From NCBI GenBank assembly GCA_001723645.1, contig MDLC01000015.1, positions 1-57,238 on the forward strand: a stretch of 57,238 nt of DNA. Reading direction: 5' to 3'. Source of the DNA: Candidatus Endobugula sertula. Its GTDB lineage: Bacteria; Pseudomonadota; Gammaproteobacteria; Pseudomonadales; Cellvibrionaceae. A model generated the notes under the pieces. That model had not been told where the DNA came from, ran no database searches, and saw only the letters and a program-made list of their open reading frames with translations. Numbering within the stretch: the first letter of the stretch is position 1; each line of letters begins with the position of its first letter. Positions 37,695 to 53,600 of the stretch are shown here, in pieces. A program made the position numbers and the translations under genes.

Positions 37695-38330
37695 TTAAAC
37701 GATGATCTTGAAAAAACTGCAAGTTATTCAACCAGAATCTTTTGCAACAAAAAGTTCGAGGTGTCATTTTTACCACCCAGTAGATAGAAATCAGGGTTCA
37801 ACAGGTTATCCCTGCCATTGTAATTCAATTGGCTGAAACATCAAATCGACGTTGACCATAGTTCTCACGATGTTGATCAAACACGTTTTTCAACATGGTG
37901 AATTCAATGGGTCATTGCAACACTTAAATGGTAAATGCCCATTATTTGAGATTGTCTACGTGTTCCCACCAAACCAAAAGAAATTTTACCATCGGTCATG
38001 TGGGCTTTATAGTCGCAGGGTAAATCACTCAGTGATGTTAGGATACGGATTCATTGCAAAAGACAGGAGGTATACAACCTAAACCAGTCACCAGAACGAA
38101 ATGGGACGAATTTCTGATCGATAGTTCTTTGGTAACGACTCAATCAGCAACTCCTTGTTTAAATTCTTCTGTATAGCATTGTTTACTACTCGTAGTTTCA
38201 CCTCATTAAGTGGTGTATTTTCTCTTAATTAAGAGTCTCGTGCTATTACAAAAGTGACTGACTCGCTATTATCTCACCTGACAAGCTGCCATAATATTAT
38301 ATATTGAAACATCGGTAACATGACGAAAAC

Positions 38331-38987
38331 ATGACAATAGTTAACTGGAACAAGATTGATACGGTTATGCTAGACATGGATGGCACACTGTTGGATCTGC
38401 ATTATGATACATACTTTTGGACGAATCATTTGCCTCAACGTTACGCTGAACTTAAACAGATTCCCGAAACCGAAGCAAGACATCGTTTAAATACTCATAT
38501 CCGTTCATTGAAAGGCACTTTAAACTGGTACTGCCTCGACTATTGGGCAACAGAGCTAGACATTAATATTCTCACCCTCAAAAGGGAGATCAAAGAACGC
38601 CCTTATACAAAGGAATTTTTGCAATTTTTGCAGGTCCAAAAAAAGCAGGTGGTATTAGTCACTAATGCCCATCCGGTTGGTCTTAATATAAAGCTGGGTG
38701 AAACGTGCATTGGAGATTATCTCGATCATATTATTTCATCTCATCAGTTTAGTGAACCCAAAGAAGCCCAGGCATTTTGGCATCACTTACGAAACCACTT
38801 CCCCTTCAATAGCCAACGCACTTTGTTTATTGATGACAATCTGACTATTCTAGAATCAGCTAAAGCCTATGGTATTGCTTATATACTGGGTATCCATCAA
38901 CCTGACAGTCAAATTGAGCGCCAACTTGAAGGGATACCTGCCATCTATCACTTTAATGAAATCATGCCCGATAAGGCTATCGACTAA
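38331..38987 (+). CDS. HAD-superfamily hydrolase (YrfG-like nucleotidase)
   Basis: Motif I MLDMDGTLLD, VLVTNAH and FIDDN. 218 aa. Confidence 0.8.
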   Translation: MTIVNWNKIDTVMLDMDGTLLDLHYDTYFWTNHLPQRYAELKQIPETEARHRLNTHIRSLKGTLNWYCLDYWATELDINILTLKREIKERPYTKEFLQFLQVQKKQVVLVTNAHPVGLNIKLGETCIGDYLDHIISSHQFSEPKEAQAFWHHLRNHFPFNSQRTLFIDDNLTILESAKAYGIAYILGIHQPDSQIERQLEGIPAIYHFNEIMPDKAID

Positions 38988-39161
38988 CGGGTTGTGCACC
39001 TCATGATTATGCTTTTCACTTGGTGCTTACGTAAGTATTGTGGCAAGCGATTTATTTTGTTACGAACTAATATGGATGCTCTCGCTAAAGACGTTGATTC
39101 ATCCCCCGATGATTACCAGTGGGAAAGGGCTGACCGCTTTAAAGTCGTTATCACTAAGGCG

Positions 39162-39326
39162 TTAAGACGACTTGAGATTAAAAACCAGTGCTCGAATGCC
39201 TACCTGAAATTGCACTTTCTTTAAATCTCGATAACGAACGTGTTTGTTGCGATGCGCAAACACATGTTCATAAGATGATCGCATCGCAGAAAACCAGCCA
39301 TCCTTACGACGATCTTTTCCTTTCAT
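39162..39326 (-). mobile_element. IS5/IS1182-type (DDE) transposase C-terminal remnant
   Basis: Hand translation ...MKGKDRRKDGWFSAMRSSYEHVFAHRNKHVRYRDLKKVQFQVGIRALVFNLKSS* fits the R..vEhvF...K.....RyRgL.K.......l.a...NL tail of these transposases. No catalytic domain lies upstream. Confidence 0.5.
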
Positions 39327-39440
39327 ATTGTTCTTTTGGGTCGTCGCGTTGTGGCAGCCTTTGTGCTTGAGTGCTCATAACCGTTCTCCTTTTTGTGTCG
39401 CTTTTTTGATACGGTAGAAAGTTGGATACTGCTTATTTAT

Positions 39441-40397
39441 CTATACGTTTATGCAATACCATTGAGGTGTTTTAATCGCCTGTAAATATCGCTTCGACTG
39501 CTTATCCCTTTGTAGAAACATGGGTGATTCATTCGTCACTTCAAAACCAAACTGTTTCGGTAAGCTGGTATACATTGACTTTGGCGGCAAGTCATAAATT
39601 TTTTTAATCTTTCGTCCTGTATCAAAGGTATGATAATAAATGATAGAAATTCCCAGTTCATTGCGAATAAAACGAATGGCTGCCGCTAATGATAATTCAG
39701 CCCAAAGCGTTTTATAAGGTTTTAGAATGACCTCTGCATATTCTTTAATATCTCCATATTCACAATGAATGCCATTAATCACATCGCCGGGTTTTGCCGT
39801 GTTTTCCTTGGAGAGATGTTTGTTTACGTGCTCCAGATCTCTATTGACGTCGCGTAACCAATCATTTTGCACCTCCTCAATTAATGCTTCCCCAGTAGAT
39901 AAATCTGCATCGATTCTTACCCATGACAAGGTTTTACGATAGCCCCTTCTAATAGGGTGACCTCTAAACTCAAATGGACCGTAGTTATCTGAAGGCTTTA
40001 ATAAGCGGTGATACTCCTGATTGTGCTTATTATCAAAATTAATTTGCAACACCAAATTCTGCTGATTTCTCGAAGTCTGGTCGTAGTCTCTGTCACCCTC
40101 CCCCCAGCGATCCAATGTTAGAGTAAAGGCCAGCGTGCCTTCATTCCAGTAAAGTGACACATCATCCTTGGTCAACATACCGTTACCACAACGTTTAGTA
40201 ATATTTTTCACTATAGGCTTGGTGGAAAAGCGTTGTAAAGGCGGCTTGTTTAACTCGCGTACTTGTAAGCTTTGCCTTTTGTTGTTTTCCATATACCAAT
40301 TAATCATATCTAAACAATAGCGGTCTTTAAGATAATAAAAGACTCTTCTTTCGTCACCTAAGCAATCGAGTATTTCGTCTAATTCTTTCTGTTTCAT
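39441..40397 (-). CDS. Uncharacterised protein, paralog A of the rtcB-prfH-linked gene
   Basis: 318 aa. Colinear with ORF 41581..42474: [104 protein letters not shown]. Confidence 0.7.
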   Translation of the reverse strand: MKQKELDEILDCLGDERRVFYYLKDRYCLDMINWYMENNKRQSLQVRELNKPPLQRFSTKPIVKNITKRCGNGMLTKDDVSLYWNEGTLAFTLTLDRWGEGDRDYDQTSRNQQNLVLQINFDNKHNQEYHRLLKPSDNYGPFEFRGHPIRRGYRKTLSWVRIDADLSTGEALIEEVQNDWLRDVNRDLEHVNKHLSKENTAKPGDVINGIHCEYGDIKEYAEVILKPYKTLWAELSLAAAIRFIRNELGISIIYYHTFDTGRKIKKIYDLPPKSMYTSLPKQFGFEVTNESPMFLQRDKQSKRYLQAIKTPQWYCINV

Positions 40398-40677
40398 AAT
40401 AGTACTTCTGATAGGAACATCTGATTAACCGATAAATATTTACTGAAGTATTTGTAAATGGGTCAATCTAGATAGTATTACATTCAATGTTTCACATTTT
40501 CTTATCGCTACTCAAGCGATAAGTCATTTTAGACAATTCTCACCTTTTAAACTGATAACAAATAGCGTTTAGTCAGTACTCAATTGGCTAAAGAGCACTT
40601 CATAAATACCGCCTGCGCATTTTTAGCCAAATTGTTATAGCGCACTTTCCGATATCCAAATGGTGACGTTCCATTAA

Positions 40678-41022
40678 ATGACAAAATTTACAAATGGTCG
40701 TCTCATCAGCGACTATCTCGCGCTGAGGCTTTGGGATAAAAAGGTTCAATGGTTTTACAAAGTGCTGACCAAGATAGAATCTCGTTCATTGGCTCCAGAA
40801 ACATCTCTTTGCGAGTCTTCTTACGACATTTTTCAAATTCTTGGTAAAATTGGCGGGCATAAAAAACACCGTAATTTAATGCGAATGATTTCAGAGCAAC
40901 AAAAAGCTATTGCTGAAATAAAAGCGGCGATGATTGCCGATGAGGATTTCGCGGAGAAATTCGCGGCTGAATTATTGGATGAACAAACCTATAAAAAAGT
41001 CATGTCTATCTTTGTACCGTGA
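40678..41022 (+). CDS. Hypothetical protein
   Basis: 114-aa ORF. Its stop overlaps the next ORF's start. No family recognised. Confidence 0.4.
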   Translation: MTKFTNGRLISDYLALRLWDKKVQWFYKVLTKIESRSLAPETSLCESSYDIFQILGKIGGHKKHRNLMRMISEQQKAIAEIKAAMIADEDFAEKFAAELLDEQTYKKVMSIFVP

Positions 41023-41255
41023 GAGGGCTTTTTGCTAACCCCCTTCATAGTGAACCAGAAGAATTAAAGGATCGGAGTTTGCCTGAAAGTCCTTTGGTGG
41101 AGGAGGATGATCCTGCCTTGGCACATTTGACCTATGAGAAAAAGGTCGAGGTGATTAAATCGTTATGGAAGATGATGTCATTGATGGTTGATATGGCGTG
41201 GGGCCTGGATAGTACACAACAATCTTTAACCGAAACCTTCCGTGGAACTGGGTAA
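41019..41255 (+). CDS. Hypothetical acidic protein
   Basis: 78-aa ORF, coupled to the preceding ORF. Confidence 0.35.
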   Translation: MRGLFANPLHSEPEELKDRSLPESPLVEEDDPALAHLTYEKKVEVIKSLWKMMSLMVDMAWGLDSTQQSLTETFRGTG

Positions 41256-41306
41256 GATTCTGGAAGTGTGGTACGACTAAAAGATAGCAAAAGGAGGGTA
41301 AAGAAT

Positions 41307-41390
41307 ATGGCAGAAGTCACAAAAGCATTAATTTATTGCCGTGTATCCAGTAAGAAGCAAAAGCAAGGGGACGGCTTGGAGTCAGGAACA
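41307..41390 (+). pseudogene. Serine recombinase N-terminal remnant
   Basis: A strong RBS aaggaggg precedes MAEVTKALIYCRVSSKKQKQGDGLES, which carries the catalytic-Ser motif Y.RVSS..Q of resolvase/large serine recombinases. Similarity ends after about 28 aa. Confidence 0.5.
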
Positions 41391-41580
41391 CCGCCGCCAG
41401 ACCTTACAAAAAATGAAAGCTTGTTATTGAGGAAAAAGCGGCGAATTCGGTCAAACCGCAGCGAGGTCGTGACGATACTTATATGTTCATGGCACCATAA
41501 GTTGGCCACCTTTTGACACCATAGATTGGCCGTTTTGTATAATATTTGTTCATTTGGTGCGTTTGTCTCCTGATCATACT

Positions 41581-42474
41581 CTAAATTGATAGGCGATACC
41601 ATTGGGTATTTTTAATAGCCTTTAGATATCTCCTAGCTTTTTTGTGTTGTTCTAAAAACCTAGGACTTTGACTGGTTACTTCAAATCCAAATTGCTTTGG
41701 TAACTTTGTGTACATAGATTTGGGCAGCAATCCGTAGATTTTCTTAATTTTTCGCCCTGTGTCAAAAGTATGATAATAGATGGTCGAAATACCCAGCTTG
41801 TTGCGGATAAATTGAATAGCCGCTAGTAGTGAGAGTTCCGCCCATAATCTCTTATAAGGCTCTAATATGACTTCAGCATAGTGTTTAAATTCATTATACT
41901 CACAGTCAATACCATGGATAATATCGCCGGGTTTTACTGTGTTTTTCCCAGCATAGCACCTTGTAACACGCTGCATATCCCAGGTAACTCTACGGATCCA
42001 ATCATTTTGTACCTCTTCAATTAATGCTTCTCCTGTCGTAGGATCAAAATCTATTCTTACCCAAGATAATGTTTTGCGGTTATTTTGCCTAATAGGATGC
42101 CCTCTATATTCAAATGGGCCATAGCTATCATAAGGTTTTAGTAAACTATGGTAGTGTTGGTTATGTTCATTGCCAAAATTGATTTGTAAAACCAGATTTT
42201 GCTGATTTCTAGGTGTTTGATCATAACCTCTTTCGCTGTCACCCCACCGATCAAGTGTTAATGTAAAAGTTAATACATCATTGGGCCAGTAAGATTTAAG
42301 ATTATCTATTGGTAAATAACCATTGCCGCATCGTTTGATAATGTTTTTAACAATCGGTTTTGCGGCAAATAACTCTAAATAATAGCGATCCTTAAAATAA
42401 TGAAAGCCCCTTCTTTCATTACCTAAGCAATACAGTACATCCTCTAAATATTTACTCGTTAAAATCTCTACCAT
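41581..42474 (-). CDS. Uncharacterised protein, third gene of the rtcB-prfH operon (paralog B)
   Basis: 297 aa. The start overlaps the prfH stop by 23 nt. Shares long identical blocks with 39441..40397 but lacks about 25 aa near the N-terminus. Confidence 0.75.
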
Positions 42475-43135
42475 AAAAAGTACGTATAGGTTTACCCCTT
42501 TGCACTTCGTAGTGCTGTGACCATCGTGAACGTTCGAGTGATTTATTTTCTAAATCGTTTTGATTTGCCAGCAATAGTTGCAAACGCTCTAATGCGATTT
42601 GCTTATTTCTATGCTGGGAACGGTCTGATTCAACACGCACTTTTAAACCAGTTGTGCGATGAGTGATACGAACCGCACTATTGGTCTTATTGACATGTTG
42701 ACCACCTGGCCCTTTTGACCGCATAGTCTCCATATCGACTTCCTTCACTAATTCGTTGAACGTCTTCATACTATTACTAGGCATTGATAATGTCGCAATA
42801 CCCACGAACCAGTTGATGCGTTTATGCTTAGGTCGATAAGGGCTTTCACCTTGCCATTTAATAGTTCCTTGCCATTTATGAGCAAACCCATCAACCCCTT
42901 TGCCTTCTAAGCGGATCAATATCGACAAAAATGCATCAGGCTCAATCAATGTCTGATTTCGCAATAACTTATCAAATGCTAAGCTCTCAACGATTTCAGC
43001 AGACAGATTTTCTCTGTATGCTTCATCCAATAGAACTCGACTGAGCTGAGCAATAACCCAGCCGCATTCTTTAGGGCCTTGACCAGCCGTCAGTTGTAGC
43101 CATACAACTGACGATTTTTTATGCTTTGTTTCCAT
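42452..43135 (-). CDS. prfH: Peptide chain release factor H (PrfH)
   Basis: 227 aa. The RF-like GGQ domain reads [20 protein letters not shown] without a codon-recognition domain of RF1/2 size. Lies 2 nt downstream of rtcB, as in known rtcB2-prfH pairs. Confidence 0.88.
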
Positions 43136-43137
43136 AT

Positions 43138-44373
43138 TTATGTTCTCCGTGTTTTATAGGTGAGTAATGGTTTAAAGGTTGCAACGATATCAACCATACC
43201 GGCTTCCGCTAAGTCGCTCACCACCTGACTAATATTTTTGTAGGCTTGTGGGGCCTCTTCATAAAGTAGATCTCTTTGCTTACAAATAACACGGCTACCT
43301 AGTGAAGTTTTCTCTAAGTCTTTTACCTTAAAACGCTTTTCTAAGCGGCCTCGAGCATCACTGCGTTTCCATTTTCGGCCTGCACCATGTGCTAGAGAAA
43401 AACCTCCAAGAGCCAATGCACTTAGCTCATTAACTCTAGGTTTAACAAGATAACTTAAACTACCTCGAGATCCAGGTATCATTACTAAGCCCTTATTCGT
43501 TGGGCTTGCACCTTTACGGTGTATCCAATAACGTCTTTCTGAATCGATGTCTGACTTTGCGGCTGATTTTGCAGAAAGCCCCATTAGCTCAGTCTCAACA
43601 CTTGATAAAGCTTCAACCATATTGTGGGTGACATCGAACAAATAGCGTTGCTTTGTCTTTAACTGCTGACAAAAACGTTCTGCAATAAGTTCTCGATTTG
43701 CTTCAGCCCAACGGATAGCGTAATTGTGACGTTTTTGATACTGTTCATACTGATATTCATCTTGTATGGTTTCTAATGATTTTGAACCTAGGTTATCAAC
43801 ATGATCGCGAAGTATTTTTTGCCCTAAACCTCTAGAGCCGCTATGTACGAGTAAAAACACATGCTTTTTATCAATACCTAATCCATCAAATACATCACTA
43901 TCAATAATCTCATGAATCTGTTGCAATTCAGCAAAGTGATTATCGCCACCTATTGTTCCTAACTTGTGATGCTCTGTTAATGAAAAATCACCTTCAATTA
44001 TTAGACTGCGATCGCCCAACCATTCTTCCCTATTGCCATTCCATAGTTCATCAAGCCCAACAAGTTGTTTTTCCCATTTGTCTAATTTGACCTTTCTGGT
44101 CGGAATATCTAATTGCCATAAACCCATGCCACAACCAATATCACTACCCACCATATGGGGGTAGATACAGTTTTCCGTTACAAAAGCGGCGCCAATGGGT
44201 TGCCCTTTTCCTGGGTGTAGATCTGGCATACCAATACCGATACGCATACCCGGTAATTCCATTGTTTTTTTCAGCTGCGTAATGGCAGCGTCTTCTAACC
44301 AATTTTTGTCAGAGCTAATAATGCTCGTTCGACGATCCTCAGCTGTTTCGATATTTTTAAATAAAGTACTCAT
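43138..44373 (-). CDS. rtcB: RNA 3'-phosphate/5'-OH ligase RtcB (PrfH-associated type)
   Basis: [35 protein letters not shown] and HGAGR motifs. 411 aa. Confidence 0.93.
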
Positions 44374-44486
44374 ACAATTTACTTGTTCTATTTTTTCCTA
44401 TATGTCATCTTTCGGCGCAAGTTCGCCCCTCCTGAATCATACATTCAAGTTAAAAAATGACAGGCAATAAGTCTTAACAGTTAATA

Positions 44487-44612
44487 GCGGTGCAAGGATG
44501 CGCCGCCACTGGTCGACAGACCAGTGCGAACCCCTTAAAAACAAGGAGCTTCACATAGCTTCGCCAGTTTTTAAGGGGTGACAGTTAAATAGGTTAGGAT
44601 GACCTATTTAAC
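44487..44612 (-). ncRNA. Candidate structured RNA / leader: four consecutive hairpins upstream of rtcB-prfH
   Basis: Four stems on the plus strand: gcggtgca/tgcgccgc (44487-44506, 7 of 8 bp), cactggtc/gaccagtg (44507-44526), ccccttaaaaac/gtttttaagggg (44531-44578, 12 bp) and gttaaataggt/acctatttaac (44584-44612, 11 bp). No ORF and no U-tract. Strand is not determined from sequence. Confidence 0.35.
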
Positions 44613-44725
44613 TATATAATTAGTAACTGCAATAAATTTTAAATATGCAAAGCTAAACTAAAGCTTCAATAAAGAGCCAGAGATTAAAAATGTTTGTCTG
44701 AATGGATATAGCAGTAAGAAAAAAT

Positions 44726-44938
44726 TTAGCTATAAGAAGCTTGGCGCCCGCCTTCCGGTACCTTTGTTCGCATTTTATGGACTTGTGAATAAGCATATCC
44801 CTTAAATTTCGCCCAGCAGCCTTTATGCAAGAATAATTGTCTTTTCTCTCTTACCATTTCGCCAACCGCTGTACTGTATAAAACACAGTTTCGAGGTACA
44901 AATAAAGAATCGATAATATATTGTGTTTTACTACCCAT
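44726..44938 (-). CDS. Small basic hypothetical protein downstream of cca
   Basis: 70-aa ORF. No family recognised. Confidence 0.3.
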   Translation of the reverse strand: MGSKTQYIIDSLFVPRNCVLYSTAVGEMVREKRQLFLHKGCWAKFKGYAYSQVHKMRTKVPEGGRQASYS

Positions 44939-44978
44939 TGTCTTTCATCCTGTTGAGTACTATTCCTCTAAAGTCTTT

Positions 44979-46241
44979 CTATTGAGGAGCTATCTTATAC
45001 TGTGCCATATACCGCTTAATACTACCCAAACGTAACCGACGAATTTTCTCTGCTAATTTAAGGCCTTCATAGCCTTCACTTAGTAATGGCTTGATATTGG
45101 TATCTATAGCAACCTGGTTGTATTCGATTAACAATTGAGATTGAGGGTAATCTCTTTGCTCTAATCCTAAACGACCCCTAGCATCCGCTTCACAGGCTTG
45201 CGCAAAGTAACGTACACGTTCTGGTCGCCTGAACCCATCTAGTGCTTCCAATAGCTTTAATACCGATTTGGGACGCATTTCTAATAACTTATGACAACGT
45301 AAATGATGCTCTGACACTAGTTTTGCCAAGGTGCGAAAGTCTTTCGGTACTTTATAACACTCACATACTTTCTCAACTAAAGGTACACCTTTAATTTCAT
45401 GGCGAATATGACGAGGCCACTCTTCTTCAGGGGTAAGACCTTTACCCAAATCATGCATTAGTGCAGCCCAGGTCACGATTAGATCATCAAAACGCTCTCT
45501 GGCAATGTCCACGACCATCATCACATGATCACCCGTATCCACTTCTGGGTGATGCTGTGGGGGTTGCGGAACACCAAATAAACAGTCTAATTCTGGCATT
45601 AAAACCTCCAATGCACCACAGGCACGGAGCACTCGGAAAAACTCACTGGGCCGAGGCTCGGTTAATGCTCGAGACATTTCCTTCCAAACACGTTCCGGTG
45701 TTAATTCAGCAAGCTCGCCATTGTTAACCAAGTGCTTCATTAATTCTAATGTATTGGGATGCACTTGAAAATCTAACGTGGCATAACGTGCAGCAAAACG
45801 GGCTACTCTTAATACTCTCAATGGGTCATCAGAGAATGATTCTGAAACATGTCGTAAGACTTTATTATTTAAATCGGCTCTACCGTTAAACGGATCAACA
45901 TATTTACCTTCTAATGTCAGCGCAATGGCATTAATCGTAAGGTCTCTCCGAGATAGATCTTCTTCAAGTGTAACCTCGGGGCTAAAATCACAAACAAAGC
46001 CAGTGTGCCCCTTACCTGATTTTCTTTCAGTACGAGCGAGAGCATATTCATCCTTAGTTTCTGGGTGTAAAAAACAGGGAAAGTCGTTACCTATTTGTTG
46101 ATAGCCTTGCTCTATAAGCATTTCTGGAGTCGCACCGATGACTACCCAGTCATGATCTGCAACTGGGCGACCTAATAGCTTATCGCGTACCGCTCCACCG
46201 ACTAAATAAGCCTGAACACCAGTATTCTGTATATTTTCCAT
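44979..46241 (-). CDS. cca: Multifunctional CCA-adding enzyme (class II nucleotidyltransferase with HD domain)
   Basis: YLVGGAVRDKLLGRP..D.DWVV, ARTERK and RDLTINA, plus a C-terminal HD-domain region (LMHDLGK). 420 aa, like E. coli Cca. Confidence 0.92.
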   Translation of the reverse strand: MENIQNTGVQAYLVGGAVRDKLLGRPVADHDWVVIGATPEMLIEQGYQQIGNDFPCFLHPETKDEYALARTERKSGKGHTGFVCDFSPEVTLEEDLSRRDLTINAIALTLEGKYVDPFNGRADLNNKVLRHVSESFSDDPLRVLRVARFAARYATLDFQVHPNTLELMKHLVNNGELAELTPERVWKEMSRALTEPRPSEFFRVLRACGALEVLMPELDCLFGVPQPPQHHPEVDTGDHVMMVVDIARERFDDLIVTWAALMHDLGKGLTPEEEWPRHIRHEIKGVPLVEKVCECYKVPKDFRTLAKLVSEHHLRCHKLLEMRPKSVLKLLEALDGFRRPERVRYFAQACEADARGRLGLEQRDYPQSQLLIEYNQVAIDTNIKPLLSEGYEGLKLAEKIRRLRLGSIKRYMAQYKIAPQ

Positions 46242-46987
46242 TATATTGTTACGACTAAGTTCTCATTAAAGTTTGGGTTATAGCTATCTGGATAACCTCT
46301 TGGATTACAAATAATACGGCAGTTACCTATGGAGTAATCATAACTTTGGTGCAAATGACCGTGAATCCAAAGATTTGGACTGTACTCCAAAATAAAATCA
46401 TCTAAATCAGATACATAGGCAGCGCTCGTCATATCGCTTGCCTTTTTCTCTGAAAGAGACATTCTACTAGGGCCGTGGTGACTTATAACAACATTTTTAT
46501 ACCCTTTATAAGTGGTTAGTTCACGTTCAAGCCAATGAAGTGAATGTTTATGGATAATAGCCGTATCTATCGACCTTAATTTTGAGTACTTGGGAGAAAC
46601 TCGAATCTTCTTGTAGTCATTCATTATCTGTTGACAGTGAAAACCTGCAATCCGAGGATCGCCAAAAAGCTCAAAATCTGTCCATAATGTACAGCCAAAG
46701 AAATTAATATTACCTAAAGTAACCAACTCTTTTTCTAAAATATGAATGTTTGTGTCTTTAGCCATCGCTTTCATTTCATGAATATATTTCGGATACGCTT
46801 TACCGTAAAATTCATGGTTGCCTAGTACATATAAGACGGGTTTATCAGGTATATTTTTTAATGCCCACTCTATTCCTTTTCCTTTTACATGGATATCACC
46901 AGCAAGAATGACAATGTCACACTCCGGCAAGGTTAGTTCCAAATTAGCAAACTCTATATGTAGATCACTTAATATTAATAACTTCAC
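46241..46987 (-). CDS. Calcineurin-like metallophosphoesterase
   Basis: LSDLHIE, AGDI, GNHEFY, HHGP and GHLH motifs. The stop overlaps the cca start (TAATG). Confidence 0.85.
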   Translation of the reverse strand: MKLLILSDLHIEFANLELTLPECDIVILAGDIHVKGKGIEWALKNIPDKPVLYVLGNHEFYGKAYPKYIHEMKAMAKDTNIHILEKELVTLGNINFFGCTLWTDFELFGDPRIAGFHCQQIMNDYKKIRVSPKYSKLRSIDTAIIHKHSLHWLERELTTYKGYKNVVISHHGPSRMSLSEKKASDMTSAAYVSDLDDFILEYSPNLWIHGHLHQSYDYSIGNCRIICNPRGYPDSYNPNFNENLVVTI

Positions 46988-47023
46988 GTTATACTTCTGA
47001 TAGTTTTTTCATATGTAAAGGGT

Positions 47024-47048
47024 AAAACCGCCAGCAAGCTGACGGTTA
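47024..47048 (-). terminator. Probable terminator after the SPFH gene
   Basis: aaccgccag-caag-ctgacggtt hairpin (8 of 9 bp), followed on the minus strand by a short TTTT run. Confidence 0.5.
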
Positions 47049-47052
47049 TCGG

Positions 47053-48207
47053 TTAAGCCTTTTTAGGGGCTAGAGTTACAAGCTCGTTAAGCACACCGCC
47101 TAAACCACCGTAAACAGAAATCTTATCGATTTGACCGGTAATTTTTTCGAGTGCTTCTAACTCTTTCAAGCGAAGCAATACTGGATTATTTTCCATCATC
47201 TTAGCAGTATTATGTAACGAACGCATAGCTTGAGTTTCCTCGCGGCGTTTGATCAAGTTAGCTTCAGCTTCTTTTTGTGCTTCAACCACTTGATTCAAGA
47301 TTTGCTTCATATCACCCGGCAAGATAATGTCTTTAACACCAACATTGACCAGCTCAATACCATAGTTAGCTAATTTTTCGCGAGTCGCTTGGGTAATCAC
47401 TGTGTTAAGTGTATCTTTATCTTCCAACAAAGTATCCAGTGATTGTGTACCCACCGCTTCACGCAGGCTTAACTGCAGCTCGCGATAGATAAAACCAGCA
47501 TAATCATTCACTTTTAAAGCGACGATTTCTGGATCTTTCACTTTATAGCTAGCGCTTAAGTTAATACGCAGGCTCACACGATCCTTTGTTAAAATTTTTT
47601 GACCACTTACCTCAACAGCTTGTAAGCGTAGATCTAATAGCTTAACACCAACAGAACGATTGTATTTCCAGAAGCCATAATTTCCAGGCTTTAAAATACT
47701 CTCGAGCTTACCATTAACGTTTAGAAGGCCGACGTGTTCATCTGGCACTTCTGCGTAAAGAATGGCATTAACTACTTCTCGGCTTTGACCTACTGTTAGG
47801 CCTCGACCTAGTAGATTAATCAACGACTTATCGATTTGGTAGTTCTCACTGATATCAATAATATCAACACGAACATCCTCTACATTTTTCCAAACGGTTA
47901 AAACAGAACCTGGTGCGAGCACACTAGCCAGCTTGTTATCTCGATACAGCAAACCGACTTCAGAGTCTTTAAGGTTAAACTGTTCAAGATAAGGTGCTAA
48001 TTTATCTGCATATTGAGTCATTAGGAACTGTGCTTTACGGTTCTTAAATAACACGTCGGTAATGTCATGAACGTCTACTGCCACTCGGCCTTGTGGGGTC
48101 GATACTCGGTGTCGACCTGGACCTAGTACACGTTTAAATTGATCACGCACATACAATAGAGCACGTTGATGATCAGCAATATCAATTGTCTTCCAGAAAA
48201 TCATCAT
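47053..48207 (-). CDS. SPFH/band-7 domain protein (slipin-like)
   Basis: 384 aa. A central SPFH-type region and a C-terminal coiled-coil QKEAEANLIKRREETQA. Confidence 0.85.
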   Translation of the reverse strand: MMIFWKTIDIADHQRALLYVRDQFKRVLGPGRHRVSTPQGRVAVDVHDITDVLFKNRKAQFLMTQYADKLAPYLEQFNLKDSEVGLLYRDNKLASVLAPGSVLTVWKNVEDVRVDIIDISENYQIDKSLINLLGRGLTVGQSREVVNAILYAEVPDEHVGLLNVNGKLESILKPGNYGFWKYNRSVGVKLLDLRLQAVEVSGQKILTKDRVSLRINLSASYKVKDPEIVALKVNDYAGFIYRELQLSLREAVGTQSLDTLLEDKDTLNTVITQATREKLANYGIELVNVGVKDIILPGDMKQILNQVVEAQKEAEANLIKRREETQAMRSLHNTAKMMENNPVLLRLKELEALEKITGQIDKISVYGGLGGVLNELVTLAPKKA

Positions 48208-48494
48208 TTTCTCCTTATAGCTGGCATCATAAAGATGCCTTTTATGAATAGGCGAGGCCCACTTGGTTTTAACGCGGTCGATAATTTGAATAGCCTAGGT
48301 CACTTATCTCAGCGGCTTGTTGCGCGGTTATCTTCACCCTGAAGAACAACATCCGTGTATGCTTTCCTTAGCGAATAACCGTGGTTCAAGCATAAAATAA
48401 TGACGTAAACGATTAACCCATCATCAACGGTATTAAAACCATTGCTAGCTAATCTATAGAAGCCTTAACCAGCAGTGAGCCTCTAGTGTTTTAT

Positions 48495-48541
48495 TGGTAA
48501 CAAACCAAGGGGATTCGAACCCCAGACTTTCGTCTTACCCA
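48495..48541 (-). other. tRNA 3'-half-like fragment (T-arm plus ..ACCA), no 5' half
   Basis: The minus strand reads TGGGTAAGACGAAAGTCTGGGGTTCGAATCCCCTTGGTTTGTTACCA. It directly abuts the CCA end of tRNA-Met. No complementary 5' acceptor strand was found. Confidence 0.45.
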
Positions 48542-48618
48542 TGGTGTTTTTGGCAGGATTCGAACCTGCTACCCATCGATTATGAATCGATTGCTCTACC
48601 CGTATGAGCTACAAAAAC
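48542..48618 (-). tRNA. tRNA with CAT anticodon (Met, or Ile if lysidine-modified), CCA encoded
   Basis: Hand fold: GTTTTTG TA GCTC ATACGGGTA GAGC A ATCGA TTCATAA TCGAT GGGTA GCAGG TTCGAAT CCTGC CAAAAAC A CCA. Confidence 0.85.
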
Positions 48619-48984
48619 CTATGCGTTGGAGGCATAGTTGTTTAGCGGGCTAGCGAATCGGTACACAGGACATTAAAAATGGCTGTGCCAGCCTGGCATA
48701 CGGAACCAGAGACACTGTTTCGTTAACTTGCGCATAAACATCGGTATGGAGTTAGACGCCAAAAAAGCGCCAAACTCCAAATACTTATCATCGAATATCG
48801 GAAACAACACTAAGGTGTTTGCCTTTTTCCTTATCGTACTCGGCAATTTCCATTTCTCCGTCAATTGGCGCTATTGTTACCAAATGATCAATTCGTGAAT
48901 ACATCTCTCCATGGTAGGCTTTTAGCTCGCCTTTTCCATTTTCATATCCTCATTGCTTATGAACTAAAGCCAATACAGTTTGGT

Positions 48985-49536
48985 TTAGCCACTCTTCCAT
49001 TTTCGTTGACTAGAAAATTGTTTAGTCAGATAGTCCATTTGATCGGCAATAATATGCCGATTAGTTAAATACAAATATTCAAAAGGATTCGGCGTAAACG
49101 GAACCGCTAATAAAAGCATATTTGCTTGTTCCGGTGTACGATTGCCTTTTGCATGATTGCAGCGCTTGCAGGCGGCCACGACATTTGTCCAACTATCGGC
49201 TCCACCTTGAGCACGCGGTACCACATGGTCACGGGTTAGTTCCTGTGCAAAAAATATTTGGCCGCAATATAAGCACACATAATTATCTCGACGAAATAAC
49301 ATAGCATTGCTAAATGAACGGACCTTCATACTTTTTCCGTGACCTTTAGTCGCAATCACTGGAGAAATATCAAGCATAGAACGTTCGCCATCGCGGTTGT
49401 AACCGCCCCGCATTAAGGCACCTTGTTCACCCATTTCCCACAGCACAAGTTTTTTGCTGTAAAGGGTTGTAGCAGCCTCCACTAATAGCCAATGCATCGG
49501 CATACCAGAGGGATTTAGGCGTAGTACTTTTTTCAT
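48985..49536 (-). CDS. HNH endonuclease
   Basis: CLYCG...TRDHVVPRAQGG..SW.NVVAACKRCNHAKGNRTP is a classic HNH-Cys4 motif. 183 aa. Confidence 0.88.
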   Translation of the reverse strand: MKKVLRLNPSGMPMHWLLVEAATTLYSKKLVLWEMGEQGALMRGGYNRDGERSMLDISPVIATKGHGKSMKVRSFSNAMLFRRDNYVCLYCGQIFFAQELTRDHVVPRAQGGADSWTNVVAACKRCNHAKGNRTPEQANMLLLAVPFTPNPFEYLYLTNRHIIADQMDYLTKQFSSQRKWKSG

Positions 49537-49578
49537 TACCTTGCGCCAAAAAATAAATCCATATGTGAATACACCAGC

Positions 49579-49875
49579 CTAATAGTATTTAATAAAGTTC
49601 ATACCATCAGCCGAGCGATAACCATTTGTTTCTAACAAATGGATCATCGCTTGTCGTTTTTGTAATTGCCTTTCTGTAACAACTACATAAAGCGGCATCA
49701 ATTGTTGATGGAGTGCCCATGTCAACAATTGGTGCCCATTTTCGCGACCAACTAAATAGTGATCCACATATAGCTGGGTTACACTATTTTTAAGCAATTG
49801 CTTTTTTGCTTTTCTTGCATCGTCACAGAAAACATCTGCGAAACGGTTTTGATTTTTGCTAACAGATAAACGCAT
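49579..49875 (-). CDS. Hypothetical protein inside the tRNA array
   Basis: 98-aa ORF, 33 nt downstream of tRNA-His. No family recognised. Confidence 0.45.
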   Translation of the reverse strand: MRLSVSKNQNRFADVFCDDARKAKKQLLKNSVTQLYVDHYLVGRENGHQLLTWALHQQLMPLYVVVTERQLQKRQAMIHLLETNGYRSADGMNFIKYY

Positions 49876-49908
49876 AATCCCTCCTGTGAGCTAGTGAGAA
49901 TATTTAGG

Positions 49909-49980
49909 GGTGACCGATGGGACTCGAACCCATATATACTTGAGCCACATTCAAGCGCATTACCGATCTGCCACGGCCAC
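49909..49980 (-). tRNA. tRNA-His (GTG), no encoded CCA (CCT) and no G-1
   Basis: Hand fold: GTGGCCG TG GCAG ATCGGTA ATGC G CTTGA ATGTGGC TCAAG TATAT ATGGG TTCGAGT CCCAT CGGTCAC C. Followed by CCT, and position -1 is T. Confidence 0.75.
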
Positions 49981-50011
49981 ACCTAAATATTCTGGGTAAT
50001 AAGAAATAATT

Positions 50012-50086
50012 TGGTCCGCCCGGTAGGATTTGAACCCACACCTGTCGGCTTAAAAGGCCGATGCGCTACCATTACGCCACGAACGG
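50012..50086 (-). tRNA. tRNA-Lys (TTT), CCA encoded
   Basis: Hand fold: CCGTTCG TG GCGT AATGGTA GCGC A TCGGC CTTTTAA GCCGA CAGGT GTGGG TTCAAAT CCTAC CGGGCGG A CCA. Confidence 0.85.
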
Positions 50087-50091
50087 AAAAT

Positions 50092-50170
50092 TGGCACCTG
50101 ACACAGGACTCGAACCTGCATCTCCCCGCTTCGTAGGCGGGTGCTCTAAATCCAATTGAGCTAATCAGGC
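50092..50170 (-). tRNA. tRNA-Arg (ACG), CCA encoded
   Basis: Hand fold: GCCTGAT TA GCTC AATTGGATTTA GAGC A CCCGC CTACGAA GCGGG GAGAT GCAGG TTCGAGT CCTGT GTCAGGT G CCA. Confidence 0.85.
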
Positions 50171-50176
50171 AAAATT

Positions 50177-50250
50177 TGGAGCCCAATACAGGACTCGAAC
50201 CTGTCTCTACTGCTTACAAGGCAGTTGCACAGCCGCTATGCCAATCGGGC
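50177..50250 (-). tRNA. tRNA-Thr (TGT), CCA encoded
   Basis: Hand fold: GCCCGAT TG GCAT AGCGGCT GTGC A ACTGC CTTGTAA GCAGT AGAG ACAGG TTCGAGT CCTGT ATTGGGC T CCA. Confidence 0.85.
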
Positions 50251-50290
50251 AAGTTAAGAAATTTTGTGAAATAAAAGACTGGAATCCTTT

Positions 50291-51487
50291 CTAGCCTTTT
50301 ACGTTGACGATTTGACGAAGCGTATGAACAACGTCAACAAGATCAGTTTGGTTATCCATAACATCATCAATTGGCTTATACGCCATGGGAATCTCATCGA
50401 TTACACCTTTGTCTTTACGGCATTCAATCCCCTCTGTTGCAGATACAAGATCACTTACAGAATAGGTTTTTGCAGCCGCAGTTCGACTTAGGCGACGTCC
50501 AGCGCCGTGAGAGCAAGAACAGAACGATTCTGATTCACCTTTACCACGAACAATAAAACTTTTATCGCCCATAGACCCAGGAATAATACCCAAATCATCT
50601 TTTCTTGCGCGGATAGCGCCTTTACGTGTAACCCATACGTTTTTACCAAAATGGTTTTCCTTTTCCACATAGTTATGATGACAATTGATGGCTTCTTGAG
50701 TGACCGCAAACGCTGGAAGATGTTTACGTAGCTCCATCATCACTGCATTCATCATATGTGTACGATTCAATGCAGCATAATCTTGCCCCCAAGATACTGC
50801 TTCGATGTAATCATCGTAATATTCTGATCCTTCAGATAGATAAGCCAAATCTTTATCGGGCAAATGGATCATCCATTTTTCCATTTCACGTTTCGCGATC
50901 TCGATAAAATGCATTCCAATTTTATTACCGATACCACGGCTTCCTGAATGCAGCATAATCCATACGTCTTGATTTTCATCCAAACACAACTCGATAAAGT
51001 GATTCCCTGAACCTAGCGTACCTAACTGCTTTGCAAAGGCATCATACTTAATACGTTTACTTATTTGAGGATGCTTCTCGAAGATAGTACTTAAACGCAT
51101 TGAAATATCATGGCCACCTGCAATTTTAGGGTCACGATGTTTTCCGCCTGCCCCCAAAGGCACAACAGATTCAATACGACTGCGAATAGCTTTCAAATTA
51201 TCAGGCAGATCTTTTGCCTTTAGCGATAGACGCACGGCATTCATACCACAACCAATATCCACGCCTACTGCAGCAGGGATAATCGCTTTATCGGTCGCGA
51301 TTACTGAACCCACAGTCGCTCCTTTACCCAAATGAACATCTGGCATTGCTGCTACATGTTTATAGACAAAGGGTAAATTCGCTACTCGGCTTAATTGTGC
51401 CTGTGTGTTGTAATCAATATCATCTGTCCAGATTTTTACAGGCACACGCTGATCTTTATGCGTTGCCAATACTTTTTTAATGGTCAT
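50291..51487 (-). CDS. rtcB: RNA ligase RtcB embedded in the tRNA array
   Basis: MPDVHLGKG, GVDIGCGM, GSGNHFIELC, HSGSRGIGN, HNY and HGAGR motifs. 398 aa. Lies 30 nt downstream of an oversized tRNA-like gene and 40 nt upstream of tRNA-Thr. Confidence 0.95.
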   Translation of the reverse strand: MTIKKVLATHKDQRVPVKIWTDDIDYNTQAQLSRVANLPFVYKHVAAMPDVHLGKGATVGSVIATDKAIIPAAVGVDIGCGMNAVRLSLKAKDLPDNLKAIRSRIESVVPLGAGGKHRDPKIAGGHDISMRLSTIFEKHPQISKRIKYDAFAKQLGTLGSGNHFIELCLDENQDVWIMLHSGSRGIGNKIGMHFIEIAKREMEKWMIHLPDKDLAYLSEGSEYYDDYIEAVSWGQDYAALNRTHMMNAVMMELRKHLPAFAVTQEAINCHHNYVEKENHFGKNVWVTRKGAIRARKDDLGIIPGSMGDKSFIVRGKGESESFCSCSHGAGRRLSRTAAAKTYSVSDLVSATEGIECRKDKGVIDEIPMAYKPIDDVMDNQTDLVDVVHTLRQIVNVKG

Positions 51488-51517
51488 AATTGCCTCCTTT
51501 AGTTATTTTATAATGAC

Positions 51518-51658
51518 TGGTTGGAGGTATAGGAATAACCTAAGCGCGTCCTGCGCTTAGCCTTTCAGATGCAAAGCAGTTCAAAATGCTCCCGGCATTT
51601 TGTCGAACCCATCTCGCCGGGGCAAAAACCCGGTGCTCAGCCACTAAGCCAACCTCCA
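51518..51658 (-). tRNA. Oversized (141 nt) tRNA-like gene with a 74-nt T-loop. The 7-nt anticodon loop reads TTTTTGC (UUU). CCA encoded.
   Basis: Hand fold: TGGAGGT TG GCT TAGTGGCTG AGC A CCGGG TTTTTGC CCCGG CGAG ATGGG [TTCGA CAAAATGC-CGGGA-GCATTTTG AACTGCTTTGCATCTGAAAGG CTAAGCGC-AGGAC-GCGCTTAG GTTATT] CCTAT ACCTCCA A CCA. Acceptor pairs 7/7 and T-stem 5/5. Confidence 0.6.
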
Positions 51659-51668
51659 GTTAAGTAAT

Positions 51669-51818
51669 TGGAGCGATGTATGGGAATCGAACCCATTTCC
51701 TCTGCTTGGACTGCTTTGCAGGAGCAAAAGCAGGACATCATGTAGTGGTGGTTGCGAAGCAATTGTGTATAGGGATATACACAACAACGCAGGTACCTCA
51801 CCATTCGGTTAACATCGC
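51669..51818 (-). tRNA. Oversized (150 nt) tRNA-like gene with an ~80-90 nt insertion in the anticodon arm. Anticodon undetermined. CCA encoded.
   Basis: 5' part: GCGATGT TA ACC GAATGGTGA GGT A CCTGC. 3' part: GCAGA GGAA ATGGG TTCGATT CCCAT ACATCGC T CCA. Acceptor pairs 7/7. The insert holds the hairpins TTGTGTATA-TCCC-TATACACAA and CTGCTTTTGC-TCCT-GCAAAGCAG. Confidence 0.55.
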
Positions 51819-51824
51819 ATAAAT

Positions 51825-51902
51825 TGGTCTGGGTGGTAGGGTTTGAACCTACGACCTTTGGGTTCCAAACCCAACACGCTAACCAAACTGCGCTACACCC
51901 AG
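51825..51902 (-). tRNA. tRNA-Pro (TGG), CCA encoded
   Basis: Hand fold: CTGGGTG TA GCGC AGTTTGGTTA GCGT G TTGGG TTTGGAA CCCAA AGGTC GTAGG TTCAAAC CCTAC CACCCAG A CCA. Confidence 0.9.
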
Positions 51903-51910
51903 AATAAATT

Positions 51911-52052
51911 TGGCGGTTCATACCACTTCCCATAAATAGAGAGGGAACCGGTGATCTCTCGGCTTATTCACATGAATGTAATGTATGCCGATTTTGCAGG
52001 AGCAAAAATCGGTGACAACCGAGCGCATTAAACCTGACTATGCTAATGAACC
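51911..52052 (-). tRNA. Oversized (142 nt) tRNA-Asp(GTC)-like gene with a 49-nt insertion after the anticodon loop and an expanded T-loop. CCA encoded.
   Basis: Hand fold: GGTTCAT TA GCAT AGTCAGGTTTA ATGC G CTCGG TTGTCAC [CGATTTTTGC-TCCT-GCAAAATCGG CATACATTACATTCATGTGAATAAG] CCGAG AGATC ACCGG [TTCCC TCTCTATTTAT GGGAA] GTGGT ATGAACC G CCA. Acceptor pairs 7/7. Confidence 0.6.
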
Positions 52053-52057
52053 TTAAT

Positions 52058-52133
52058 TGGTGGAGACCGTGGGAATCGAACCCACCACACAGTGCTTGCA
52101 AAGCATCGTCGCCCCCTTGATACATGGGCCCCC
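52058..52133 (-). tRNA. tRNA-Ala (TGC) with G3:U70, a poorly paired D-arm, CCA encoded
   Basis: Hand fold: GGGGGCC CA TGTATCAAGGGGGCGAC GATGC TTTGCAA GCACT GTGTG GTGGG TTCGATT CCCAC GGTCTCC A CCA. The G3-T70 wobble is present. No convincing D-stem. Confidence 0.7.
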
Positions 52134-52138
52134 AATTT

Positions 52139-52293
52139 TGGAGTGCGAGGCTGGGTGAAAGAAGTGTTGTTAGCAAAGCACTGCTTTGTACTTCTTGAAC
52201 GCCCAAAACTTATAATTTTTGGCCGGCCCGCTTGCGGCAAACCAGCGTATACGGAGGTTGCAGCTCCGCGCATCGTCTCTCTGCCACTCGCAC
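52139..52293 (-). tRNA. Oversized (155 nt) tRNA-Cys(GCA)-like gene with an 87-nt T-loop. U73, CCA encoded.
   Basis: Hand fold: GTGCGAG TG GCAG AGAGACG ATGC G CGGAG CTGCAAC CTCCG TATAC GCTGG [87 nt, including AAGAAGT..ACTTCTT and AAAGC-AGT-GCTTT hairpins] CCAGC CTCGCAC T CCA. Acceptor, anticodon and T stems all pair perfectly. Confidence 0.6.
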
Positions 52294-52310
52294 AAAATAG
52301 TTATTCAGAT

Positions 52311-52384
52311 TGGCAACAGCGTCAGGATTCGAACCTGGAATACCGGAGTCAAAGTCCAGTGTGTTACCGTTACACCACGCTGCT
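52311..52384 (-). tRNA. tRNA-Gln (TTG), G73, CCA encoded
   Basis: Hand fold: AGCAGCG TG GTGT AACGGTA ACAC A CTGGA CTTTGAC TCCGG TATT CCAGG TTCGAAT CCTGA CGCTGTT G CCA. One T-stem mismatch. Confidence 0.8.
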
Positions 52385-52392
52385 ATATTTTT

Positions 52393-52481
52393 TGGTCGTG
52401 AGGAGCGGGTTTGAACTCTCGCAGCACTCTTGTTACTGTGCGGATTAGCAATCCGCTGCCTTACCACTCGGCCACATTTCC
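52393..52481 (-). tRNA. tRNA-Ser(GCT)-like, probably defective (acceptor and T stems do not pair)
   Basis: Type II D-arm GCCGAGTGGTAAGGC, anticodon arm GCGGA TTGCTAA TCCGC, and a long variable arm. The 5' strand GGAAATG pairs at only 3 of 7 positions with CCTCACG, and the T-stem GAGAG/CCGCT is poor. Confidence 0.5.
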
Positions 52482-52487
52482 AATAAT

Positions 52488-52629
52488 TGGTTGCGGTGGC
52501 TGGAATAACCAAAGTACTTTCTGTACTTTGCTCTGCGAGTGCTTCGCTGCTCAAAATGCTCCAGGCATTTTGTCGAACCAACAAGTTCGGGCATATGAAA
52601 CCCGCGAGTAGCCATAGCTCAACACCGCT
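52488..52629 (-). tRNA. Oversized (142 nt) initiator-like tRNA (CAT) with the same 74-nt T-loop architecture as 51518..51658. CCA encoded.
   Basis: Hand fold: AGCGGTG TT GAGC TATGGCT A CTC G CGGGT TTCATAT GCCCG AACTT GTTGG [TTCGA CAAAATGC-CTGGA-GCATTTTG AGCAGCGAAGCACTCGCAGAG CAAAGTAC-AGAAA-GTACTTTG GTTATT] CCAGC CACCGCA A CCA. There is a 1:72 A-A mismatch, and the 3' end CCGCAACCA resembles remembered E. coli tRNA-fMet. Confidence 0.6.
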
Positions 52630-52640
52630 TCAAATAGTAG

Positions 52641-52715
52641 TAGGCCAAGGCGGATTCGAACCGCTCCTTATCCCGCTTATGAGGCGGGTGCATTCACCGA
52701 TTATGCTATTGGCCT
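52641..52715 (-). tRNA. tRNA with CAT anticodon (Met/Ile2 type), no CCA encoded
   Basis: Hand fold: AGGCCAA TA GCAT AATCGGTGA ATGC A CCCGC CTCATAA GCGGG ATAAGG AGCGG TTCGAAT CCGCC TTGGCCT A. Followed by CTA. Confidence 0.75.
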
Positions 52716-52725
52716 AATTTAAAAT

Positions 52726-52809: not shown

Positions 52810-52818
52810 CTGCATAAT

Positions 52819-52895: not shown

Positions 52896-52902
52896 ATAAA
52901 AT

Positions 52903-53598: not shown

Positions 53599-53600
53599 AG

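Follow-up and report, generated by a model that had tools for sequence, protein, structure and literature searches.

A predicted GNAT-fold protein family encoded beside RtcB RNA ligases, with two copies in a repair island of Candidatus Endobugula sertula

Release factor H and its RtcB partner rescue ribosomes that ribotoxins have cleaved and religate the 16S rRNA. In Escherichia coli, the RNA ligase RtcB2 and release factor H (PrfH) are the products of an operon of two genes, which needs no third protein to work (PMC9304027, PMC9223846), and the two proteins are sufficient both in vitro and in vivo (PMC9304027, PMC9223846, PMC13166195). Related systems have further genes; the main text of Burroughs and Aravind (2019) names a TPR protein, a novel Pol-beta nucleotidyltransferase (NTase), and ZnR plus charged-helix, charged-helix, and 'RFR' domains as accessories of RFH(PrfH)-RtcB (PMC6514570). 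Here we describe a third gene that follows an rtcB2-prfH pair in Candidatus Endobugula sertula (GenBank assembly GCA_001723645.1). The gene lies on contig MDLC01000015.1, whose positions 1 to 57,238 were the stretch of DNA that was analyzed (57,238 nt, referred to here as the window). The protein family encoded by the third gene was given the working name X, and the window has two copies, X297 and X318. Because X forms a large family beside RtcB genes in many bacteria, it is probably a component of RNA/ribosome repair. The genes at the center of the analysis were as follows.

43138..44373, minus strand: rtcB2, PrfH-coupled RtcB RNA ligase (411 aa; TIGR03073 and NF007153)
42452..43135, minus strand: prfH, release factor H of the EcPrfH type, without a C-terminal tail (227 aa; TIGR03072, PDB 9mor and 7sa4)
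41581..42474, minus strand: X297, the prfH-proximal copy of the predicted GNAT-fold, RtcB-associated protein (open reading frame [ORF] of 297 aa)
39441..40397, minus strand: X318 (AB835_05810), full-length paralog of X297 (318 aa; 62% identical to X297)

A first-pass annotation of the window had described the three-gene arrangement and had overlooked X318, a second full-length copy located 1.2 kb downstream of X297. AB835_05810 and AB835_05820 were source names among the matches in the homolog search.

The rtcB2-prfH pair and the neighborhoods of X genes

The three minus-strand ORFs, the 2-nt gap between rtcB2 and prfH on the same strand, and the 23-nt overlap between prfH and X297 that had been reported in the first-pass annotation were confirmed in the ORF list; the X297 ATG (42474) is located 20 nt before the prfH TAA (42454..42452). 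The assignments of rtcB and prfH were also firm, as both proteins scored above the cut-offs of NCBIfam models. Specifically, PrfH passed the equivalog model TIGR03072 (209 bits; cut-off, 166.65), and RtcB2 matched TIGR03073 (release_rtcB; 438 bits; cut-off, 271.8) and NF007153 (503 bits, above the cut-off). The RtcB2 of the window was only 28% identical to E. coli RtcB1. PrfH matched solved PrfH chains in PDB (9mor, 2e-42; 7sa4, 3e-40), with an alignment that stopped short of the CgPrfH tail; the PrfH subfamilies include a Capnocytophaga type with a C-terminal tail (PMC12829566). The window is like the E. coli module in that a tail-less PrfH of the EcPrfH type and a PrfH-type RtcB2 are adjacent and in the same order. 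It differs in that the window and about 20 other species add a GNAT-fold gene after prfH, in a larger island.

The overlap between prfH and X297 had been taken to imply co-translation. The overlap itself is real, but the inference rests on a feature that only the window shows. In relatives, prfH and X were separated by 45 to 241 nt, and thus the overlap is a local peculiarity and not a family trait. No Shine-Dalgarno sequence was visible upstream of the X297 ATG. A promoter and terminator scan of 39000..45200 yielded fewer promoter-like sites than were found in shuffled sequences and nothing informative.

An exhaustive profile search for X relatives returned 938 clusters at 50% identity (E ≤ 1e-3), 476 of them at E ≤ 1e-30, and a word-indexed search returned 141 relatives. 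When one genome per species was scanned, at least 445 species had an X relative. The carriers were chiefly marine or sediment Gammaproteobacteria; Desulfobacterota, Bacteroidota, Vicinamibacteria, and others were also represented. The lengths of X proteins were very uniform (305 to 335 aa), and the source name was "hypothetical protein" for every relative that we saw. The statement in the first-pass annotation that the protein belongs to no recognized family was correct: both window copies, when compared with Pfam, NCBIfam, PADLOC, and PHROG, gave nothing above noise, as did 40 alignment members compared with Pfam. A sequence-profile search of PDB with X returned only a spurious match to UvrC (E value of 0.91). 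The annotation had also allowed for a mobile-element gene that reached this position by chance; X was absent from the plasmid and phage collections, as a tblastn search of 72,556 plasmids and 50,697 phage genomes found no match.

The gene neighborhoods of X were surveyed in two samples, each of which describes a part of the X family and not the whole: the best 80 species-level loci from genomes, which were closest to the X of the window, and the best 80 loci from metagenomes, which were seeded on a distant clade. A genome locus was considered evaluable if each of its flanks was 1.5 kb or longer, and linkage was defined as an RtcB gene within 1.5 kb on the same strand. Of the evaluable loci, 48 of 62 from genomes and 20 of 34 from metagenomes had RtcB linked to X; an RtcB gene was present anywhere in the flank in 57 of the 80 genome loci. 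X was mostly located directly downstream of rtcB, with gaps of -22 to about 300 nt. Five RtcB clades adjoined X, namely RtcB2, the E. coli RtcB1 type, and three further clades, and the most common partner was an RtcB with 52% identity to the RtcB of the E. coli rtcBA operon (34 genome and 26 metagenome loci; 60/160). PrfH was present in just 20/80 genome loci and 7/80 metagenome loci, and rtcA and rtcR were almost never found in the sampled X loci.

These results changed the picture given in the first-pass annotation, which had suggested that the third protein may be a new accessory component and had proposed a neighborhood survey for co-occurrence with prfH and rtcB. The arrangement is indeed conserved, with rtcB2-prfH-X present in about 20 species-level loci of Gammaproteobacteria and Desulfobacterota, and this supports an accessory component of the repair module over a chance neighbor or a mobile-element gene. 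The primary partner of X, however, is RtcB, and most of the linked loci have no PrfH. In other words, RtcB was near X in many loci, PrfH was near X in few, and part of the family stood alone.

The nearest relative of a given X shared its RtcB type in 56 of 58 cases, which indicated that X-RtcB pairings are stable over evolutionary time. The stability may be owed to operon inheritance as much as to co-adaptation. In some loci, a true ArfB gene was located between X and RtcB (NF006718; 145 bits versus a cut-off of 100), and in some loci a gene for an RbfA-like protein was located upstream of rtcB (Pfam RBFA; 43.8 bits versus 34.7). A gene for an SPFH/Band-7 protein was found near X in 12/80 genome loci and 12/80 metagenome loci. 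The other recurring neighbors were HNH, RlaP, and CCA-type NTase genes and large tRNA arrays.

One more neighbor, designated c3, is a small basic protein of 70 to 106 aa encoded right after X, often with a 22-nt overlap. It was found in 18/80 genome loci and 7/80 metagenome loci (L023-L043, L056, L061, L075, and others). The N-terminal motif MP..R...A..PL..KGG.H.......R (consensus, ...RNPVARSPLLRKGGxHxKSKTGQRV) is invariant in the c3 proteins, which may be tail proteins that bind ribosomes or RNA. No match was found for the c3 family, and the idea that c3 is ArfA-like had no support from Pfam or NCBIfam.

The predicted fold of X and its possible roles

An AlphaFold2 model of X318, which was based on a 40-sequence alignment, had a predicted local distance difference test (pLDDT) score of 93 and a predicted template modeling (pTM) score of 0.92. 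The model had the GNAT core fold, which is characterized by a mixed sheet with a strand-helix-strand cofactor cleft, and Foldseek comparisons of the X model with PDB and BFVD again returned GNATs, although weakly. Judging from the model, the core of X is a divergent GNAT (acyl-CoA N-acyltransferase-like) fold. According to the secondary structure of the model, the RxD... / D..ExQ block of X is a strand hairpin of the GNAT-like core that leads into a helix. In GNATs, catalytic residues and the cofactor loop are located in this region.

Motif A (Q/R-x-x-G-x-G/A), the acyl-CoA pyrophosphate loop, was not found in X. The family consensus at this place is E-E-V-Q-N-D-W-L-R, in which Q177 is invariant and W180 and R182 are at the glycine places, as mapped from the secondary-structure string and not from a residue-level superposition. 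In addition, no match to GNAT sequence profiles was found at E ≤ 1 in Pfam and NCBIfam (Pfam in the case of the 40 X members). Because X has no canonical loop and no GNAT profile match, we filed it as a GNAT-fold protein and not as a demonstrated acyl-CoA acetyltransferase. X differs from the GNAT superfamily (RimI/RimJ/RimL, Gcn5, Naa, Elp3, TmcA, and Mom) in having neither a sequence-profile match nor a glycine-rich CoA loop. It also differs in being strongly basic, in measuring about 318 aa, and in having a helical insertion, a basic C-terminal helix, and an extra region at the N-terminus.

The alignment contained 27 invariant positions, and many of these were polar (Q107, R110, H147, T156, R161, E174, E175, Q177, D179, K265, S274, and Y276). 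The same positions were invariant in a separate alignment of distant, stand-alone members, and the blocks that had been quoted in the first-pass annotation were the most conserved parts of the family and were common to X297 and X318. As far as conservation can indicate, the invariant polar pattern suggests an active site. X proteins had a median isoelectric point of 9.06 and a net charge of +9, with a C-terminal segment averaging +4.6; this basicity fits a nucleic-acid or ribosome ligand.

We lean toward viewing X as an RtcB-coupled GNAT-fold factor that is directed at RNA or ribosomes and as a dedicated gene partner of RtcB. The conserved minimal unit would be RtcB plus X. Individual lineages would extend this unit by a decoding-site- or 30S-subunit-binding factor (PrfH, ArfB, or the combination of an RbfA-like protein with a small basic protein), and the unit would often be embedded in larger RNA-repair islands with SPFH/Band-7, HNH, CCA, RlaP, phosphoesterase, and tRNA-array genes. 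X would bind what RtcB seals (damaged RNA or small ribosomal subunit), and it would perform a group-transfer (acyl-transfer-like) or substrate-presenting step at the damage. This step would use the invariant strand-helix junction (E174/E175/Q177/D179) together with H256, K265, S274, and Y276. A group-transfer enzyme is the most likely identity of X, and a non-catalytic adaptor is less likely; the reaction could, among other possibilities, be a modification that protects the repaired junction, a mark, or help to RtcB. The nucleic-acid-directed GNATs TmcA, Elp3, and Mom show that the fold can act on nucleic acid (PMC7824862). Since RtcB2 and PrfH suffice in E. coli, X is an accessory and not a core requirement.

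Several observations weigh against a dedicated partnership with RtcB. All six of the distant X members that were sampled stand alone, without RtcB, and about 13 genome loci with full 8-kb flanks have no RtcB. In two loci of the distant clade (L086 and L089), the gene order was guaB, a gene for an RsmB/F-like rRNA m5C methyltransferase, X, and guaA. The position of X beside an RsmB/RsmF-type methyltransferase gene hints weakly at an rRNA-related role outside repair islands. In the case of another stand-alone X, which was located between aroA and a thiF-like gene, the protein had a basic N-terminal extension of 80 to 90 aa. Such an extension (..KKGGxGGKLGRSNMSHW..) was found in some stand-alone homologs (P0199, P0204, P0232, P0251, and P0258; loci L082-L085), whose surroundings are housekeeping-like and contain no RtcB. 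The Rosetta-stone idea that c3 is homologous to the extension was dropped, as the hhalign probability was 0.5%.

The alternative that survives best is that X is a non-catalytic adaptor, that is, a GNAT-like scaffold without acyl-CoA binding that positions RtcB or a rescue factor on damaged 30S or RNA, or that activates RtcB. Archease activates RtcB elsewhere. However, the 27 invariant positions, with their polar cluster, are kept in both RtcB-linked and stand-alone X proteins and look more like an active site than an interface, and the stand-alone members have no nearby RtcB to recruit. We consider an adaptor possible, although rather unlikely.

An ordinary small-molecule GNAT, such as an enzyme that inactivates an antibiotic or toxin directed at ribosomes, is an improbable identity for X; in that case, X would be merely co-regulated with RtcB in a translation-stress island. 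X does have a GNAT fold, and the Anabaena TrcR regulon combines GNATs with RtcB, HNH, slipin, and tRNA arrays (PMC10272220). On the other hand, the coupling between X and RtcB was very tight (same strand and often overlapping or less than 100 nt apart) and extended over five RtcB clades. X is also 318 aa long, with extra domains and no CoA motif, and it is strongly basic when compared with what is generally known of small-molecule GNATs.

Even less probable is the suggestion in the first-pass annotation that X is a toxin or an immunity partner, which in GNAT terms would be a TacT-, AtaT-, or ItaT-like protein that blocks translation during repair. Beyond the GNAT fold and the translation-related setting, nothing that we found points there. 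TacT and AtaT are GNATs of about 160 to 180 aa with an adjacent small DNA-binding antitoxin; X proteins, with 305 to 335 aa, are about twice the size of GNAT toxins, and no small antitoxin was consistently adjacent, since c3 was confined to 18/80 and 7/80 loci and is basic and not ribbon-helix-helix (RHH)-like. Furthermore, X was absent from plasmids and phages, had no PADLOC match, and also occurs as a single, housekeeping-like gene. Finally, the proposal that the D...E-x-Q pattern marks a PD-(D/E)xK-like nuclease variant can be set aside almost entirely: the pattern (D163 ... E174-E175-x-Q177) is conserved, but the X model matches the GNAT fold, in which the D..ExQ block is located on a strand hairpin of the core, and it has no restriction-endonuclease-like alpha-beta-beta-beta-alpha-beta core with D...(D/E)xK.

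Two X copies in an apparently eroding island

The two X genes of the window are separated by the following features.

40678..41516, plus strand: spacer with a recombinase fragment and two small ORFs of 114 and 78 aa that overlap and match no family (ORF list)
41268..41516, plus strand: 82-aa N-terminal fragment of a serine recombinase/IS607-like gene (weak matches to NF033518 IS607, 1e-3, and PHROG 95 integrase, 2e-4)

The small ORFs and the recombinase fragment are probably the scar of the rearrangement that gave rise to the two-copy arrangement. The closest relative of the locus that was found, L081 (a Logan assembly), has one full-length X located 145 nt after prfH, in the gene order RtcA ... 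HNH - Band-7 - CCA - RlaP - RtcB - PrfH - X. The synteny of rtcB-prfH between the window and L081 breaks off at 42476, by the prfH stop codon, and the window lacks the usual intergenic region.

The idea that X297 is a recent duplicate of X318 was rejected: when close homologs were included, X297 grouped with P0015, outside the clade that contained X318, P0002, and P0003. A coarser tree placed X297 and X318 together within the gammaproteobacterial PrfH-linked clade. P0015 (Logan ERR4592245), the nearest relative of X297, is encoded in an RtcB-PrfH-X operon. A gene for a protein tyrosine phosphatase (PTP)-like phosphatase (PTP-SAK / Tc-R-P / DSPc families) follows X in the P0015 operon and could encode a further end-processing accessory. 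On contig L171, which encodes P0002 (the closest homolog of X318), X (866..1822) was located directly downstream of an HNH gene at 2..631 and not of prfH, which indicated that island modules get shuffled. The HNH protein of L171 was 63% identical to that of the window.

X297 lacks 25 residues of the N-terminal region (around positions 33 to 59 of X318) that all other aligned homologs, of about 318 aa, have kept. It is a real gene, with homologs to E values of 1e-126 and beyond, and every invariant family residue is kept. The AlphaFold2 model of X297 had a pLDDT of 87.3, which dropped to 63 to 76 over residues 1 to 70.

We tentatively consider, as the less likely case, that X318 is the sole functional copy and that X297 is decaying and non-functional in a symbiont genome that is eroding. 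The 25-aa deletion was found in no other aligned homolog, and the model confidence was reduced around it. X297 has also lost the normal prfH-X intergenic region and start codon, with no visible ribosome-binding sequence in their place, and it is less similar to its orthologs than X318 is; in the same neighborhood, RlaP has been reduced to a 60-aa fragment. Against this, the X297 frame is intact over 297 codons with all of the invariant residues retained, and the in-frame ATG 20 nt ahead of the prfH stop codon could permit termination-reinitiation.

The other features of the island, and the mobile-element genes beyond it, were as follows.

44738..44917, minus strand: RlaP nucleotidyltransferase remnant, a 60-aa internal fragment (tblastn; 92% identity to the RlaP of L001 [300 aa] over residues 118-177)
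44979..46241, minus strand: CCA-adding-type nucleotidyltransferase with PolyA_pol head, RNA-binding, and HD domains (same position in L081, L001-L003, and L005)
46241..46987, minus strand: calcineurin-like metallophosphoesterase (Pfam Metallophos, 2.8e-14)
47053..48207, minus strand: SPFH/Band-7 protein (Pfam Band_7, 5.4e-31)
48542..48618, minus strand: tRNA-Met(CAT), between the HNH and Band-7 genes (ARAGORN, Rfam)
48985..49536, minus strand: HNH endonuclease-family protein (Pfam HNH_5, 1.4e-16)
49579..49875, minus strand: 98-aa ORF just upstream of HNH (sub-threshold cREC_REC, 20.6 bits versus 27)
50291..51487, minus strand: second RtcB, E. coli RtcB1 type, inside the tRNA array (398 aa; Pfam RtcB, 433 bits; 54% identical to the RtcB of the E. 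coli rtcBA operon)
49907..52979, minus strand: 11 further tRNA genes, split by the RtcB1-type gene (ARAGORN, Rfam)
53170..56937, beyond the tRNA array: MobC/NikA-like protein, MobA/VirD2 relaxase, RHH-PIN toxin-antitoxin pair, CxxCxxCC protein, and serine resolvase

On the minus strand, the order is tRNA array, RtcB1-type gene, 98-aa ORF, HNH, tRNA-Met, Band-7, Metallophos, CCA, RlaP remnant, RtcB2, PrfH, X297, recombinase remnant, and X318. The co-location of RNA ligases, an NTase, a phosphoesterase, an SPFH/Band-7 scaffold, and a tRNA-like gene identified this as an RtcB-centered repair island, and the window is atypical in having two RtcB genes and two X genes. In total, the tRNA array comprises 12 genes (48542..52979) upstream of the repair genes, and an Rfam scan of 38000..52000 returned tRNAs only. 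Arrays of up to 20 tRNA genes were also found upstream of X islands in L081, L026, L049, and L054. A tRNA-Met(CAT) gene was located close upstream of the Band-7 gene in L081, L002, L026, L054, L057, and L072; in L049, the tRNA at this place was tRNA-Ile(GAT). The cREC_REC domain, a sub-threshold match of the 98-aa ORF, is described as a 'cyclic-phosphate processing receiver' domain, and a 97-aa gene is found at the matching position in L081 (2664..2957).

An intact RlaP gene was present at the position of the remnant in L081 and related loci, and, from this comparison, the RlaP gene of the window appears to have been largely deleted in recent times. Because of the RlaP remnant and the truncated, displaced X297, we regard the island as eroding in the symbiont; the module would be partly eroded in the window, with X297 fused onto the end of prfH with the loss of 25 residues and RlaP reduced to a fragment. 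Since the MobC, relaxase, RHH-PIN, and resolvase genes lie beyond the array, the island abuts mobile-element genes, which suggests that it is in or beside a mobilizable element.

Relation to described systems and implications

The systems in the main text of Burroughs and Aravind (2019) are like the window in that accessory genes accrete around a PrfH-RtcB core (PMC6514570). They differ in their accessories, as X is not a TPR, Pol-beta, or Zn-ribbon protein, and that main text mentions no GNAT-like partner. In the case of E. coli rtcBA, the likeness is one of position: X usually follows an RtcB1-type ligase where rtcA sits in E. coli, and in RtcB1-type operons X would fill that slot. The folds of X and RtcA are unrelated, and nothing shows cyclase-like chemistry for X.

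RNA-repair modules that combine SPFH/Band-7 proteins with tRNA-like genes were reportedly described by Burroughs and Aravind in 2016. The HNH, tRNA-Met, Band-7, CCA, RtcB, and 12-tRNA array genes of the window resemble such modules and the Anabaena TrcR regulon (PMC10272220), and the combination recurs with X in other genomes. The Anabaena regulon differs in that X is not described as a part of it. The literature that we searched contained no GNAT-like protein linked to RtcB or PrfH; the 2016 Burroughs and Aravind survey or the 2019 supplement may name the family earlier. X is an undescribed, widespread GNAT-fold component of RtcB-centered repair, for which an earlier catalogue entry is possible. 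If the family was already catalogued in 2016, the assignment of the fold and the quantification of the linkage would retain their value.

In Pnkp/Hen1 repair, Hen1 2'-O-methylates the junction so that the repaired RNA resists re-cleavage. If X modifies repaired RNA, then RtcB-X and Pnkp/Hen1 would be analogous, each with a ligase and a group-transfer enzyme in one operon; they would differ in ligase class, transferase fold, and chemistry. In a more specific reading, X is an RNA- or ribosome-directed GNAT-fold transferase that modifies the nucleotide or the ribosomal component at the sealed nick and thereby protects the repaired rRNA or tRNA against re-cleavage, as a counterpart of Hen1, or is the missing bacterial RtcB cofactor that replaces RtcA or archease. 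In this specific form, the reading is speculative and, in our estimation, unlikely to be right. If it is true, the stand-alone X homologs mark an unrecognized housekeeping RNA modification.

RtcB and PrfH-RtcB2 repair are now being dissected biochemically as two-protein systems, and X is the most consistent gene neighbor of RtcB over five ligase clades, with an enzyme-like invariant site and without a Pfam or NCBIfam model. Culturable carriers of X include Simiduia (S. litorea KMM 9504, for example), Marinicella (such as sp. W31), Microbulbifer, and Zooshikella. If X is a true cofactor or an RNA- or ribosome-modifying enzyme, it would add an extra step to bacterial RNA repair and could explain the replacement of RtcA in many rtcB operons.

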